Counted from the first letter of the stretch, positions 16,815-58,644 are shown. The stretch: DNA of 64,000 nucleotides from Capsulimonadaceae bacterium (GCA_965277095.1 OZ255718.1:3295594-3359593), one strand, 5' to 3'. Numbers and translations: made by a program. The notes: generated by a model from the sequence alone, not told the origin.

Positions 16815-17216
16815 ATGGCGCAATATCATTTTATTCAATCGTTGTTCTTGCTGTTTGCAACGTGTATCGGATCGGGAATAGTCGCATTTAATTGGATGAT
16901 GGTAGCACAGGCGCGAAGAAAACACCTCCCTGAGTTTCTCGCTTGGCTTTTTCCGGCAGCTATTTCATCAACTGTCGCTGAAGGCATTTATCTGATTAGT
17001 GACATACGACTTTTGCTTGGCCTAAGCGAAACTTTGTCGGCCTATGAATTTACGGCGGCCTTGACTGGAGTATGCTACTTGCTTACCGGTTTGACTACGA
17101 TACGCATGTGGAATATGGTCTGTCAACTACCTTATAGCAACCAAGCAGAGTTTGCACACGAGTCCTCCGACGATAGGCCAGATATATGGCCCCCACCGCC
17201 TATGAGCCGCACATGA
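16815..17216 (+). CDS. membrane protein with C-terminal WPPPP motif (133 aa)
   Basis: ORF track; multi-TM; ends ..SSDDRPDIWPPPPMSRT. Confidence 0.6.
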   Translation: MAQYHFIQSLFLLFATCIGSGIVAFNWMMVAQARRKHLPEFLAWLFPAAISSTVAEGIYLISDIRLLLGLSETLSAYEFTAALTGVCYLLTGLTTIRMWNMVCQLPYSNQAEFAHESSDDRPDIWPPPPMSRT

Positions 17217-17220
17217 AGCG

Positions 17221-17321
17221 GCCCAACAATGCGCTGCACCTGACGCCAGCAGCCAGCGTTATGTTGTGCTTGGCATTAGGCTTGCTTCGGCTGCTGTCGC
17301 GGGTGAGCTATGGCGTTAGAC
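17221..17321 (+). repeat. attC site 36
   Basis: R''=GCCCAAC; R'=GTTAGAC. Confidence 0.9.
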
Positions 17322-17363
17322 CGTGCGGCGAAAGCAGATAGGCGGCGTACACAAGAGAAGACC

Positions 17364-17702
17364 ATGCAAAAGCAAAAAAGCAAGTCTGTTGGAATATGTG
17401 TTGTATTAGTTTTGGCGGCCATTGTCCTAGTCAGTGTGTTGAGAGTCTCTGCGCTATTGAACAAGGCAAGCACTCAAGGGGTACGCTATACAGCAAGTTT
17501 TCTTCCCATCGCTTTCTGGGGTTGGGGCAACAACACCTGGAAAGGCCAGCGGGGTTTGGACGCTGTGGAGGCAGTGGATACGGACGAGGTAATTTGTGCG
17601 CCCGGTAAATCGTGTGAGCGTCCTGACCTTTATCGCTATCATGCGTTTATCTTGGGGCCATTGCAGGTGATGAGACAGACTACTGAATATCGGCCCTACT
17701 GA
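17364..17702 (+). CDS. signal-anchored protein (112 aa), paralogue of 4167..4463
   Basis: ATG 17364 in track ORF 17310..17702; shared motifs listed at 4167. Confidence 0.6.
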   Translation: MQKQKSKSVGICVVLVLAAIVLVSVLRVSALLNKASTQGVRYTASFLPIAFWGWGNNTWKGQRGLDAVEAVDTDEVICAPGKSCERPDLYRYHAFILGPLQVMRQTTEYRPY

Positions 17703-17709
17703 GCGCACG

Positions 17710-17809
17710 GTCTAACAATGCGCTGCACCCGACGCCATCAGCCACGTCTACCTCTGCGTTAGCATAGGGTATACTTGGCTGTTGTCGCGGGTGAGCTATG
17801 GCGTTGGGC
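17710..17809 (+). repeat. attC site 37
   Basis: R''=GTCTAAC; R'=GTTGGGC. Confidence 0.9.
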
Positions 17810-17890
17810 CGCAGGGCGGAAGCCTTGCGTGTCGCAATACTCTCCATTCGGTTTTATTGGCCGCTAAAATGCTGGAGATGAGAATACAAT

Positions 17891-18430
17891 ATGCTCAATG
17901 ACAGACTGCCTCCGTGTCCAGAGTGCGGAACAAGGATGGAACAGGGGTTTTCACATAGAAATACTAGCCTGTCGTGGGTCGCGGCGCAGAAGCTAAAGAA
18001 GTTTGCTTTCTCGGACGAGGACTTAAACGAAGCAGGACTCAAGAAGTATCTGCCTTCGATAGTAGCTTTGAATTTGAGCTATCTCTGCCCCGATTGCAAG
18101 ATTTACATGGTAGACTACAGCAAGTCTTTGTCAAGGGCCGAGGCCAATAAACTGGCAGCGTCAATCCACAGCAGTCGCCCGCCGCGAAAGGCCGTAAGCC
18201 GATGGAAATTCATCGCTCAGTTGCGATGGTTTTATACAGTGAGTGTGCCTTTCTGGTTGGTACTGGGTAGGTATTTCTATTCTATATTAACCAAAAATAC
18301 GGGCCTGTTCCCATCTTATGCCCTGCTGCCATTTTATATGTTTTTAGCGGGTGTTGTATTGATTTTGGCTCTGGCAATTTGGTCTTGGTTGGTATATTTT
18401 CGCCTACGACGAGAAGCGAAAGCAAGTTAG
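17891..18430 (+). CDS. zinc-ribbon plus C-terminal TM protein (179 aa)
   Basis: CPECG..(50 aa)..CPDCK; hydrophobic C-terminal half. Confidence 0.6.
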   Translation: MLNDRLPPCPECGTRMEQGFSHRNTSLSWVAAQKLKKFAFSDEDLNEAGLKKYLPSIVALNLSYLCPDCKIYMVDYSKSLSRAEANKLAASIHSSRPPRKAVSRWKFIAQLRWFYTVSVPFWLVLGRYFYSILTKNTGLFPSYALLPFYMFLAGVVLILALAIWSWLVYFRLRREAKAS

Positions 18431-18478
18431 TTGTCGTTGAGCAATCATAGGCCTGTCATTACTGCCACACAGCCTGCG

Positions 18479-18577
18479 GCCCAACAATGCGCTGCACCTG
18501 ACGCCAGCGGCCCGGTTTCCTCTGCGTTGTGGTATGCTGTGCAGTGCCGCTGTCGCAGGTGAGCTATGGCGTTAGAT
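18479..18577 (+). repeat. attC site 38
   Basis: R''=GCCCAAC; R'=GTTAGAT. Confidence 0.9.
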
Positions 18578-18750
18578 CGCTTGCGGCAAAAGGCTGTTTG
18601 CAGACCCCGAAACTTTGGCGGCATCGTTCGGAATTAGGCTTTGCTTTTTCGGTAAGGCTGTGCTATTATTCAGGAAAGCAGTCGGGGGCTTATTGGGTCA
18701 TCCGGCAGTCGGTGGCGTTAGCGTTGTCGCTCTCGTCCGGTGGGCAAGCC
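18578..18750 (+). promoter_or_regulatory. ORF-less cassette, family A copy 9/21
   Basis: TGcTATTAT present; near-identical to copy 12 (38565-38737). Confidence 0.7.
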
Positions 18751-18850
18751 ATCTAACAATGCGCTGCACCCGACGCCAGTAGCCACCCCTACCCCAGCGT
18801 TACCGGGAGGCAGGTAAGGCTACTGTCGCAGGTGAGCTATGGCGTTAGGC
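18751..18850 (+). repeat. attC site 39
   Basis: R''=ATCTAAC; R'=GTTAGGC. Confidence 0.9.
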
Positions 18851-57016: not shown

Positions 57017-57066
57017 CGCTGGGCCGTAGGCTGGGCTGTATTCGATTGCAAGATGAGGAGGTATAA

Positions 57067-57375
57067 ATGGGGTATAGCGATTTACCGCTTCTGATACTTT
57101 CATTCTCTTTAATACTGCTCTTTGGTTCCGCTGTATTTCGTAATGCAAATGGGCAGGAAGCGCGGCTGTTACTCCTCGAACGCAAGATAAACCTCATTCT
57201 CAACCACCTGGGTATCAAAGATGATGCTACCGCAGATGTGGTGCGTGATTTAATCATGCGCGGTCAGAAAATCGAAGCAATCCGGCTCTATCGTCAACAA
57301 AGTGGCGTCAGCCTGAAAGAAGCTAAAGAGGCTGTAGACCAAATGCAGGCGAGCCTGAGAGCGGGATTAAACTAA
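57067..57375 (+). CDS. membrane protein with L7/L12-CTD-like module, exact copy of 4897..5205
   Basis: protein identical in ORF track; cassette 57017-57521 appears identical to 4847-5351. Confidence 0.7.
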   Translation: MGYSDLPLLILSFSLILLFGSAVFRNANGQEARLLLLERKINLILNHLGIKDDATADVVRDLIMRGQKIEAIRLYRQQSGVSLKEAKEAVDQMQASLRAGLN

Positions 57376-57427
57376 AGGTTCACTGAAAAGCCGTAGATAC
57401 CTGTGGCATTATGCTTTGCTGCCAGCA

Positions 57428-57527
57428 ACCTAACAATGCGCTGCACCCGACGCCATCGCCCGCGTTATCGAGTACATTATCGCAGTGCTTGCTTGGGCGT
57501 TGTCGCAGGTGAGCTATGCCGTTAGAC
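57428..57527 (+). repeat. attC site 112
   Basis: R''=ACCTAAC; R'=GTTAGAC; same as attC 13 except in the TTRRRY part. Confidence 0.9.
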
Positions 57528-57565
57528 CGCAGGGCAAAACCAGGCTTGAGGCGGGGGCAAATCAA

Positions 57566-57778
57566 ATGGAACCAAAGCCTAATCGTCGCTATTTCTATGG
57601 ATTGTTGTGCCTAATAGCGGTGGGCATGATAGTAGTGAGTTTCGGGCTGCGAGCTTATCACTCCTATCAACATCACGCTGTTGGAGAAACGATATTATAC
57701 GGGATGGCTTTCATCGCGCTTGTGGGGCTTGTGCTATTGTTCACGCTGAATCGTAAGCCTGAACCACCTGCGGTCTAA
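57566..57778 (+). CDS. small membrane protein (70 aa)
   Basis: ATG 57566 in track ORF 57485..57778; two TMs; stop in attC. Confidence 0.5.
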   Translation: MEPKPNRRYFYGLLCLIAVGMIVVSFGLRAYHSYQHHAVGETILYGMAFIALVGLVLLFTLNRKPEPPAV

Positions 57779-57872
57779 CAATGCGCTGCACCCGACGCCA
57801 TCGCCCGCCTTTTCGGGTGGGTTATCGCGGGGCTTGCTTGGGCGCTGTCGCGGGTGAGCTAGGGCGTTAGAC
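57773..57872 (+). repeat. attC site 113
   Basis: R''=GTCTAAC; R'=GTTAGAC. Confidence 0.9.
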
Positions 57873-57914
57873 CGCTGGGCGGGAGGCTTTTTTGTCGTCG
57901 TCGGAGGTGAAGGG

Positions 57915-58037
57915 ATGCTTTGGCGAAAACTCTTGGGACTAGGCATTGGCCTCGGTCTTGGCAACTTATTTATGAACTGCTTTCGTGGCAACATCATTGG
58001 GGAACAGCATTTGAGCATTCATTCTTCCAAGCGATAG
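57915..58037 (+). CDS. micro-ORF (40 aa), possibly a frameshifted small membrane protein
   Basis: GGAGGTGA SD 4 nt upstream; MLWRKLLGLGIGLGLGNLF..; another frame continues ..FFQAIALFAAWLLLKPRLPAV into the attC TAA. Confidence 0.3.
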   Translation: MLWRKLLGLGIGLGLGNLFMNCFRGNIIGEQHLSIHSSKR

Positions 58038-58081
58038 CCTTGTTTGCGGCTTGGCTCTTACTTAAACCACGCCTGCCAGCA

Positions 58082-58181
58082 GTCTAACAATGCGCTGCAC
58101 CTGACGCCACCTGCCGCGTTCACCTGTGCAAGTTCGGTTGCCTTACTTGGCAGGTGTCGCAGGTGAGCTATGGCGTTGGGC
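58082..58181 (+). repeat. attC site 114
   Basis: R''=GTCTAAC; R'=GTTGGGC. Confidence 0.9.
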
Positions 58182-58236
58182 CGCAGGGCGTCAGCCTTGT
58201 GCGAGACAATGCGCCGCTGAGGCGCAATGATTTAAC

Positions 58237-58644
58237 ATGGATGAAAAACGCAGCACAGACGAAGAAACAGCACAAAGTTTAGAGCCGAAAATCTGGCCGC
58301 CGCCTCCAACGCAATACCTACCGATGCCAACGGAAGCACAATCTTCCATCACAAAGACACTGCCATACATACTTTATGGTCTGGCAGGTGTGATGGCACT
58401 AATAGGAATGTTCTATGGGCTGGCTTTCATAGGCCGTGCTGATACCGACGAAGAATATCAACAGTTACATGGCGCACTTCGCCTCAGTTTATTAGCTTGG
58501 GGAACAACAAGTGCTTTGTTTTTGACTGCAAACTTGATTTTAACAAAGAGTTGGCTGGGTCGGGTTTTCTGGGTTGTTTTTATAGCTATTGTTTGGTTAT
58601 TTCTTTACCCAGCCTTTGCAATGCGTATGAGCAGCAGTCATTAG
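58237..58644 (+). CDS. membrane protein with N-terminal WPPPP motif (135 aa)
   Basis: ..AQSLEPKIWPPPPTQYLPMP.. then 3-4 TM segments. Confidence 0.6.
   Translation: MDEKRSTDEETAQSLEPKIWPPPPTQYLPMPTEAQSSITKTLPYILYGLAGVMALIGMFYGLAFIGRADTDEEYQQLHGALRLSLLAWGTTSALFLTANLILTKSWLGRVFWVVFIAIVWLFLYPAFAMRMSSSH

Follow-up and report, generated by a model that had tools for sequence, protein, structure and literature searches.

The window (the whole 64,000-nucleotide stretch analysed, from a Capsulimonadaceae bacterium, GCA_965277095.1 OZ255718.1:3295594-3359593) is a chromosomal integron array in which 124 attC 5′ signatures were identified, every one in the + orientation. A 3′ arm was paired with 121 of these, and 120 cassettes are complete. 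Six-frame translation of the window for WPPP gives exactly seven matches, all on the + strand and all in frame with the seven cassette ORFs that a preliminary description had named as carrying a Trp-polyproline motif; both the ORFs and their coordinates are thus confirmed. All seven are short ORFs inside cassettes, between attC sites of the same orientation. They are listed below with an eighth ORF that bears on the tag.

A16815, 16815-17216, + strand: 133 aa; W codon at 17187, tag DIWPPPP at 17184-17201; cassette 16761-17315.
B31551, 31551-31883, + strand: 110 aa; W codon at 31833, tag NIWPPPP at 31830-31847; cassette 31495-31993.
C34811, 34811-35257, + strand: 148 aa; W codon at 35228, tag GVWPPPP at 35225-35242; cassette 34795-35387.
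D37429, 37429-37737, + strand: 102 aa; W codon at 37705, tag SVWPPPP at 37702-37719; cassette 37354-37817.
G53401, 53401-53745, + strand: 114 aa; W codon at 53428, N-terminal deviant tag DVWPPPT at 53425-53442; cassette 53350-53857.
E56064, 56064-56363, + strand: 99 aa; W codon at 56340, tag RTWPPPP at 56337-56354.
F58237, 58237-58644, + strand: 135 aa; W codon at 58294, N-terminal tag KIWPPPP at 58291-58308; cassette 58176-58775.
25767 cassette ORF, 25767-26114, + strand: 115 aa; exact duplicate at 60784-61131.

All seven tagged proteins have predicted TM helices. A16815 has three, followed by a disordered C-terminal tail; in the AlphaFold2 model, the helices span residues 2-35, 39-68, and 74-104 (2-104 overall), and the tail (105-133) has a pLDDT of 44-57. 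C34811 is a homologue of A16815 (26% identity over 104 aa) and a member of alignments A2 and A3. B31551 has two TM helices, with the tag about 20 residues past TM2. D37429 takes its stop codon, TAA, from the 5′ arm of the following attC. E56064 consists of two Gly-rich TM helices and a juxtamembrane stretch, RRWERNRS; two homologues, P0014 at 92% identity and L164:567-890 at 38%, also end in TWPPPPR. The apparent cassette around this gene (55744-56490) is probably split by a degenerate attC near 55926. In F58237, the tag lies about 17-22 residues ahead of TM1. Its orthologue P0003, the fourth cassette past the integron integrase in a related array (L094) that begins beside a Phage_integrase/SAM_4 integrase, has KIWPPSP at this position. 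G53401 is modelled as a coil (residues 1-27) followed by a helical hairpin (helices 28-62 and 68-112); in both AlphaFold2 models, the tag is located in low-confidence coil. None of the seven proteins reaches a curated cutoff in Pfam, NCBIfam, PHROGs, or PADLOC. Among the carriers outside the window, the sole Pfam member is L032 (PLDc_N, 34.5 bits against a cutoff of 23.3).

The generalised motif is acidic-x-(I/V)-W-P-P-x-P, where x is P, A, T, or S. At 21 non-redundant sites, W, P+1, and P+2 are present in all, P+4 in 20, and V or I precedes the Trp in 16; position +3 is P in 14, A in 6, and T in 1, and it is S in the orthologue of F58237. Four consecutive prolines, as first described, are therefore not required, with A, T, or S at the third position in a third of the non-redundant cases. 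Acidic residues are found upstream only: D and E make up 27% of positions −10 to −2, as compared to 6.4% overall, and E occupies −3 in 9 of 21 sites. K is found at +5 in only 6 of 21. In the window, the tags are 2-11 residues from the C-terminus or 9-19 from the N-terminus; among carriers in cassette ORFs of the same attC family, the tag is within 2-19 residues of a terminus. Seven of the 22 listed carriers have it at the N-terminus. Some 10-30 polar or acidic residues separate it from the membrane. TM prediction, the AlphaFold2 models, and the acidic enrichment all agree with the original placement of the motif in the terminal tail of TM proteins, behind acidic residues.

The recurrence of the tag is not random. 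Seven copies of WPPP are observed where 0.03-0.04 are expected; shuffling residues within proteins gave a mean of 0.033 and a maximum of 2 (20,000 shuffles), and the number of WPPPP expected from amino-acid composition is 0.002. The DNA pattern TGGCCNCCNCC has seven matches; dinucleotide shuffles yield 0.60 ± 0.82 and never more than 4. In the cassette proteins of the window, a W stands directly before every PPPP, and neither PPPW nor [FY]PPPP occurs. The Pro codons differ between copies, and the tag is therefore not a repeated DNA element. In a crude comparison with background, the tag occurs 19 times in 59,065 aa of cassette protein; flanking ORFs give no more than 5 occurrences in 272,650 aa.

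Once the motif is masked, BLAST sorts 24 carriers into 19 clusters, which profile merging reduces to about 17. By these comparisons, the small bacterial membrane proteins that bear the tag, many of which are encoded by integron cassettes, belong to at least 17 apparently unrelated families. HHalign of the two best-sampled families, A3 and A4, aligns only the 16 motif columns, from a C-terminal copy in one family and an N-terminal copy in the other. The proposal that the carriers might prove to be one diverged family can be set aside on both counts. The claim that their TM parts are mutually dissimilar needs two corrections: A16815 and C34811 are homologous, and E56064 and G53401 probably share a homologous core. 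The profiles of these last two families align with 81% probability (E = 1.2e-5), with the tags at opposite termini. In L162/L164, an E56064-like and a G53401-like gene adjoin, and both are tagged.

Within families, the alignments indicate that the tag is under purifying selection and is the best-conserved feature. The A16815 family has members at 20-54% identity, and all 12 retain WPPPP with I/V before it; the linker varies in sequence and length. Nine of 15 representatives of the G53401 family (the window protein included) keep an N-terminal (I/V/S)-W-P-P-x-P or WPPPT. Between F58237 and its orthologue, replacements affect 8 of 40 codons in the tail; in the tag, the changes at I and at the second Pro are synonymous, and the only replacement is at x. 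A non-random terminal tag shared by diverse membrane proteins, as first proposed, is upheld by the masked clusters, the profile alignment, and this conservation.

The tag is confined to membrane proteins. Across 438 ORFs from cassettes whose attC sites belong to the same family, 18 of 153 predicted membrane proteins carry it, as opposed to 0 of 249 soluble ones (p = 1.5e-8); the window by itself gives 7 of 46 and 0 of 50 (p = 0.0045). K and R residues flanking the TM helices number 114 on the tag side and 44 on the other, a topology estimate based on crude hydropathy and K/R counts. This bias suggests that the tagged tails are probably cytoplasmic; F58237, its L094 orthologue, L010, L032, and L117 break the rule, and D37429 ties.

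Contrary to the initial impression, the tag is not specific to mobile cassettes, since tagged homologues are located in ordinary chromosomal contexts at L158, L159, L133, L162, and L165. We found no conserved neighbour around these non-cassette homologues. Among labelled genomes, the tag occurs in MAGs assigned to Armatimonadota (L010, L032, L047, and L084); none of the 43 cassette ORFs from Woeseiaceae that share this attC type has it. MAG labels are mixed, with integrase relatives in bins labelled Woeseia and Verrucomicrobiae, and the assignment of the tag to a lineage is weak. The contigs retrieved with this attC type come mostly from metagenome assemblies or MAGs, with no habitat stated. 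We found no description of the tag in the literature.

Because the conservation pattern W-P-P-x-P matches the xPpxP pattern of SH3, WW, and EVH1 ligands, we favour, at slightly better than even probability, a portable polyproline-II docking tag for a putative host reader protein. The tag would sit on a disordered, probably cytoplasmic tail, some 10-30 residues off the membrane and at whichever terminus is free, and would adopt a polyproline-II helix. Its two xP dipeptides (W-P and x-P), arranged around a scaffolding proline, would dock in the aromatic grooves of a proline-recognition module. This module, whose existence we infer and whose nature we guess, may be of the SH3, WW, GYF, or EVH1-like type and encoded in the host core genome. 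By binding the tag, it would link numerous unrelated small membrane proteins, cassette-borne and chromosomal, to one common machine. The conservation pattern speaks for the common interaction partner suggested in the preliminary description; no GYF, SH3, WW, or EVH1 domain is found among the matches listed (25 of 34 families) for 74 window proteins, so no candidate partner emerges there.

The core of SH3-type ligands is xPpxP. Like SH3 and WW ligands, the tag has two xP dipeptides around a scaffolding proline, with x free to vary; unlike them, it has no Arg or Lys in the canonical register. To our knowledge, a cytoplasmic proline-motif reader of the SH3/WW kind is not an established bacterial feature. 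Class I EVH1 ligands (the FP4 motif) have an F/Y/L/W-PPPP core in which P-x-ϕ-P is tolerated, with adjacent acidic residues, as in ActA, zyxin, and Fyb/SLAP (PMC2175102). The likeness to the tag extends to the aromatic residue ahead of PP-x-P, the acceptance of Trp in first place, the acidic neighbours, and the location in disordered regions; W-P-P-[P/A/T]-P is present in 20 of 21 sites. The tag differs in having I/V at −1 and acidic residues upstream only, whereas ActA also has them downstream. EVH1 ligands are, moreover, eukaryotic or displayed on pathogen surfaces and read by Ena/VASP, whereas the tag carriers are bacterial inner-membrane proteins whose tails are probably cytoplasmic. In being a short tag common to many unrelated proteins of one lineage, the motif resembles PEP-CTERM/exosortase, LPXTG/sortase, and GlyGly-CTERM/rhombosortase, and such a distribution implies a single dedicated recognition machine. 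In those sorting tags, unlike this one, the motif is followed by a TM helix and then by a basic cluster, all at the very C-terminal end of exported proteins.

Translational arrest is the main rival, as IWPPP is the core of a known Escherichia coli arrest peptide. FxxYxIWPPP arrests strongly, WPPP alone stalls somewhat, and EF-P barely relieves the full motif (PMC11669330; PMC13410324). Nascent (I/V)WPPP would stall the ribosome at the Pro codons, and expression of potentially toxic small membrane proteins would become slow, EF-P-dependent, or otherwise conditional. I/V-W-P-P-P is present in 14 of 21 non-redundant sites, and PPP is otherwise nearly absent from the cassette proteins of the window. 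The arrest peptide, however, is synthetic, was selected in E. coli, and reaches full strength only with F and Y upstream; neither F at −6 nor Y at −3 occurs in any of the 22 listed tag contexts. Position +3, whose residue would be in the A site, holds A, T, or S at a third of the sites and differs between closely related orthologues, whereas P+4, which would be undecoded at the stall, is kept in all but one. The tag is also restricted to the termini of membrane proteins, with toxins among the soluble cassette proteins that lack it. It lies at residues 8-20 in N-terminal carriers and is C-terminal in others, and no single pausing rationale fits both (targeting, force sensing, and coupling to the next cassette were weighed). 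The distance from the W codon to attC is 30-70 or 340-390 nt, and coupling to the attC hairpin would be inconsistent. We regard arrest as unlikely, though its probability is not negligible; given the W-P-P-x-P pattern, the EF-P idea of the preliminary description is less favoured than a reader protein. A distinctly smaller chance attaches to an intrinsic biophysical element that needs no reader, in which an interfacial Trp anchor with a stiff polyproline rod, or a Trp-Pro cis/trans switch, would shape or cap the tail. The invariant Trp and rigid Pro run at the end of short, disordered tails would fit, as would the lack of a reader domain among the listed matches. A cap would need no I/V at −1, acidic run, or exact W-P-P-x-P register across about 17 families, and the polar or acidic spacer suits an interfacial anchor poorly.

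Pro-Pro endopeptidases cut at sites of the general shape xP|PxP, which W-P|P-x-P would fit, and terminal tags limited to one lineage are a typical mark of sorting systems. It is nevertheless very improbable that the tag is an extracytoplasmic signal for processing or sorting, read by such an endopeptidase or a sortase-like system. The K/R bias places the tag on the cytoplasmic side, and C-terminal tags come behind the last TM helix, 2-11 residues short of the stop codon, not ahead of a TM helix and basic tail; N-terminal copies also speak against it. The sole periplasmic lead, an ankyrin neighbour with a signal peptide in L159, is not conserved. We give slightly less credence still to mimicry of eukaryotic EVH1 (Ena/VASP) ligands, whereby the carriers, like the Inc proteins of chlamydiae, would act as membrane effectors whose tails face a host cytosol. 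F/Y/L/W-PPPP with adjacent acidic residues is a defined EVH1 ligand, as in Listeria ActA (PMC2175102); two-TM hairpins would put both tails on one side, and the array contains ankyrin-repeat cassettes. Against this, there is no sign of host association or a secretion system, the tag also occurs in ordinary chromosomal genes beside housekeeping genes, and most of the contigs come from metagenome assemblies or MAGs whose habitat is not stated. Shared ancestry, a spreading DNA module, or chance is hardly credible: beyond the homology of A16815 with C34811 and the probable core shared by E56064 and G53401, the motif is all that aligns from family to family, copies vary in their synonymous codons and flanking DNA, either terminus may carry the tag, and chance predicts 0.03-0.6 copies against the seven observed.

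If a reader protein does bind the tag, our best guess for the output is control of membrane protein fate: the carriers could be passed to an FtsH-type protease or, as an alternative guess, brought to a common scaffold or site. To start degrading a membrane protein, FtsH requires an unstructured N- or C-terminal tail that is free in the cytoplasm and at least about 10-20 residues long. By analogy, the tagged tails would have this geometry, although FtsH initiation is described as largely sequence-independent. We know of no WPPxP-type degron or adaptor.

Untagged family members, and the tail of the duplicated 25767 protein, which has no Trp, suggest that the tag is dispensable for the fold. Judged by eye, the 25767 protein is closely similar to a tagged protein in L118, which has NAWPPPPSPPAV at its C-terminal end; the 25767 tail ends in IIPPLPPAA, possibly a degenerate or variant tag.

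The window is a single long chromosomal integron cassette array. The attC signature (5′ arm AACAATGCGCTGCACC, 3′ arm GGTGAGCT..GTTAG) is present in 124 copies, on the + strand every time, and delimits 120 complete cassettes ranging from 257 to 2077 bp. Predicted membrane proteins make up 46 of the 96 cassette ORFs of at least 60 aa; further cassette products are ankyrin-repeat proteins, TPR proteins, BrnT, HicA, ParE and PIN toxins, an NYN domain and DDE transposases. WPPP occurs exactly seven times in the six-frame translation, always on the + strand and always in the ORFs that the preliminary description had named, A16815, B31551, C34811, D37429, E56064, F58237, and G53401 (cassette ORFs designated by their start coordinates). 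The DNA pattern TGGCCNCCNCC is observed 7 times, with 0.60 expected from dinucleotide shuffles, and residue-shuffled cassette proteins contain a mean of 0.033 WPPP (maximum 2 in 20,000 shuffles). Trp precedes each PPPP in the window cassette proteins, from which PPPW and [FY]PPPP are absent. Copies of the tag differ in their four proline codons and have unrelated flanking DNA, so that what is repeated is the peptide, not a DNA element. A DNA-level element or a link to attC was rejected on these synonymous and flanking differences and on the varying distances to attC.

All seven window carriers have hydrophobic helices, and the tag is located 2–11 residues from the C-terminus or 9–19 residues from the N-terminus (one tail 15-mer bearing it is AEDTEDVWPPPPTQK). 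With family alignments as input, AlphaFold2 predicts A16815 as a three-helix bundle followed by a low-confidence tail, and G53401 as a helical hairpin preceded by an unstructured stretch (residues 1–27).

A wider sample of 438 cassette ORFs (59 kaa) was drawn from DNA of this attC type in collections of genomes and metagenomes. It contains 19 matches to W-P-P-x-P, including 13 beyond the window; the tagged loci L032 and L152 were found separately. The motif first proposed, (I/V)WPPPP, does recur, but the motif as a whole is broader. Examples are SIWPPPPTGSA*, DVWPPPPSV*, and DIWPPAPKV* at the C-terminus and MEENHDAIWPPAPAQ and MDTETEVWPPAPKD at the N-terminus. Across 21 non-redundant sites, numbered from the tryptophan, W, P+1, and P+2 are invariant, +3 is P (14), A (6), or T (1), and P+4 is kept in 20/21. 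V or I occupies −1 in 16/21 and E occupies −3 in 9/21; D and E account for 27% of the nine residues upstream of the tag, compared with 6% overall.

The tag is carried by 18 of the 153 membrane cassette ORFs and by none of the 249 soluble ones (p = 1.5e-8); within the window, the figures are 7/46 and 0/50. By crude helix calls, 114 K and R residues flank the helices on the side of the tag and 44 on the opposite side; a cytoplasmic position is therefore probable for the tag, though some carriers depart from the pattern. Cassette ORFs carry it about 17 times as often (19 per 59,065 aa) as do the flanking ORFs on the retrieved loci (at most 5 per 272,650 aa), an excess that may merely reflect the abundance of small membrane proteins among cassettes. 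The tag also occurs outside cassettes: tagged homologues lie among ordinary genes without nearby attC at five loci (L158, L159 on a 157-kb contig, L133, L162, and L165). Among taxon-labelled genome loci, carriers were found in Armatimonadota-labelled MAGs and one Sphingomonas-labelled MAG, and none of 43 Woeseiaceae cassette ORFs is tagged (both small numbers). Bins with relatives of the integrase and its neighbour gene bear the labels Armatimonadales, Woeseia, and Verrucomicrobiae.

Sequence comparison indicates that the carriers are not one protein family. Once the motif is masked, BLAST separates 24 carriers into 19 clusters. To this extent, the earlier claim that they are otherwise unrelated holds, but A16815 and C34811 are homologues and a common core is probable for the families of E56064 and G53401. 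None of the seven window carriers is a member of a Pfam, NCBIfam, PHROG, or PADLOC family, and the tag itself is described by no curated family. Outside the window, the tag is found appended to one PLDc_N protein. When the profiles of the two best-sampled families are compared, 16 columns around the motif align and nothing else does; the motif lies at the C-terminus of one family and at the N-terminus of the other. Common to the E56064 and G53401 families (HHalign 81%, E 1.2e-5) are probably a two-helix core rich in Gly and a juxtamembrane stretch resembling RRWERxRS, with the tag at opposite ends, the C-terminus in the former and the N-terminus in the latter. Tagged genes of both kinds adjoin on a non-integron contig. 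On the ENA metagenome contigs L162 (1-2543) and L164 (63–65% GC), a tight run of eight small genes, separated by gaps of about 20–40 nt and lacking attC, begins with the tagged E-like gene, continues with the tagged G-like gene and then encodes zinc-ribbon proteins and more small membrane ones. The run resembles a cassette-type set of genes, but with no recombination sites.

Patterns of conservation indicate that the tag is under selection. Deep family alignments cover the window carriers other than B31551, D37429, and F58237. The A16815 family (12 sequences, 20–54% identity) has eight invariant columns, five of which are WPPPP; the preceding I/V is also fixed, and the linker from the last helix to the tag varies in both length and sequence. 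The N-terminal tag persists in 9 of the 15 G53401-family representatives obtained by clustering at 50% identity; LFPPPD and WPLPP occur as variants, and the most distant members are without it. TWPPPPR is kept in an E56064 homologue at 38% identity. Compared with a 91%-identical orthologue, F58237 shows eight replacements and five silent changes in its 40-residue tail; within the tag, the changes at I and at the second Pro are silent and the sole replacement (P to S) falls on x. This orthologue is the fourth cassette of L094, a metagenome contig with an integron integrase (Phage_int_SAM_4 and Phage_integrase; 6935-7897, − strand), whereas in the window the same cassette is more than 110 cassettes deep. 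The two placements are direct evidence of reshuffling between close relatives.

We favour, with confidence slightly above even, a portable cytoplasmic docking tag for a putative host-encoded reader. The tag would dock this reader as a polyproline-II-type ligand and, as a guess, would govern the turnover or placement of small membrane proteins. W-P-P-x-P is laid out as xPpxP, like polyproline-II ligands, and, together with its acidic surroundings, fits the EVH1 core, which is F/Y/L/W-PPPP with neighbouring acidic residues (PMC2175102); EVH1 mimicry aimed at a eukaryote is given a smaller share of the probability. That the tag is a ribosome arrest element we consider improbable. FxxYxIWPPP, selected in Escherichia coli and described as artificial, arrests ribosomes strongly, and WPPP by itself causes some stalling (PMC11669330; PMC13410324). 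The bare tag sequence fits this peptide, of which the tags would then be natural uses. However, variation falls on +3, whose proline would occupy the A site, and conservation on +4; the F and Y of the arrest peptide have no counterpart upstream of the tag; no soluble cassette protein bears the tag; and one and the same tag serves at the N- and C-termini alike, similarly spaced from the membrane. For these reasons docking is favoured. Smaller shares also go to a structural role independent of any reader, to an extracytoplasmic signal, against which the K and R distribution speaks, and to ancestry or chance, against which the masked clusters and the shuffles speak.

GYF, SH3, and WW domains are absent from the 25 of 34 Pfam families listed for 74 window proteins; the families listed include ankyrin, TPR, toxin–antitoxin toxins, NYN, and transposases. 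In L159, an ankyrin-repeat gene starts 8 nt past the G-family gene. It was rejected as a partner, having an N-terminal signal peptide and not being conserved as a neighbour in L162 or L165. Small ORFs adjoining the non-cassette homologues match no informative Pfam family, the sole clear match being one DUF.

A wider proposal, that tag and putative reader together serve throughout the lineage as a dedicated ‘address label’ system at the cytoplasmic face of the membrane, deciding turnover, clustering, or assembly, is tentative, and we think it rather less than probable. Its scope would be comparable to that of PEP-CTERM/exosortase; its targets, however, would be small membrane proteins, at their cytoplasmic termini. 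No bacterial description of WPPPP, WPPAP, WPPxP, IWPPPP, or VWPPPP emerged from literature searches, whose results were confined to eukaryotic EVH1/WW studies and the synthetic arrest peptide. Short linear motifs and terminal tags are already known as a class; what is new is this one on bacterial membrane proteins. Proline-recognition modules that read short linear motifs are a cornerstone of eukaryotic signalling, and to our knowledge such reading is barely documented in bacteria. Shared by about 17 unrelated families of small membrane proteins, such a tag would lead to a new hub protein and offer a handle on orphan proteins of this kind. If the address-label reading is true, cassettes are plugged into the host protein-interaction network and their function depends on the host having the reader; host-lineage-specific interaction signals on cassettes would bear on cassette origin and the transferability of function.

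Further features of the array (examples for attC arms and short cassettes).
15180-15195, 16140-16155, 17300-17316, 55730-55745: attC 3′ arms with the start-codon pattern
8361-8635, 16486-16760, 18572-18844, 38559-38834: short cassettes, first family
1008-1282, 18845-19110, 42510-42784, 50092-50365: short cassettes, second family
45785-46606 (−) and 51305-52126 (+): inverted copies of an IS4/IS5-type DDE transposase, 273 aa, DUF4096 and DDE_Tnp_1
61778-62773 (−): third DDE transposase, 331 aa, close to the window end
4897-5205 and 57067-57375: exact duplicate cassette ORFs, 102-aa protein
25767-26114 and 60784-61131: exact duplicate cassette ORFs, 115-aa two-TM protein
9471-10694 (+): ankyrin cassette protein, 407 aa, N-terminal repeats (Ank_2, E 9e-53), three C-terminal TM helices

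The sequence of the attC 3′ arm, AGGTGAGCT-ATG-GCG-TTA-G, combines a Shine-Dalgarno-like stretch with a start codon. The ATG is present in 60 of 121 attC sites, and 11 of these start ORFs of at least 60 aa, which begin MALDR or MALGR within the upstream attC; the TAA of the next 5′ arm is the stop codon of many cassette ORFs. As starts and stops sit inside attC, the sequence suggests translational coupling between cassettes. Nearly a quarter of all cassettes (28) are short (257–277 bp) and without a conserved ORF. They group into two or three conserved sequence families, with copies up to 99% identical, and have a TATTAT box in common; a sigma-70 scan of one called no promoter at that place. 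They could be regulatory or RNA cassettes. The inverted transposase copies flank about 4.7 kb of cassettes and may form a composite element within the array. In both exact duplicate pairs, the copies are tens of kilobases apart. The three Ribosomal_L12 C-terminal-domain matches in the window probably include the 102-aa product; the 115-aa product ends IIPPLPPAA, and its apparent relative in L118 bears the WPPPP tag. Ankyrin repeats, found in three window cassette proteins, are unusual content for an integron array.
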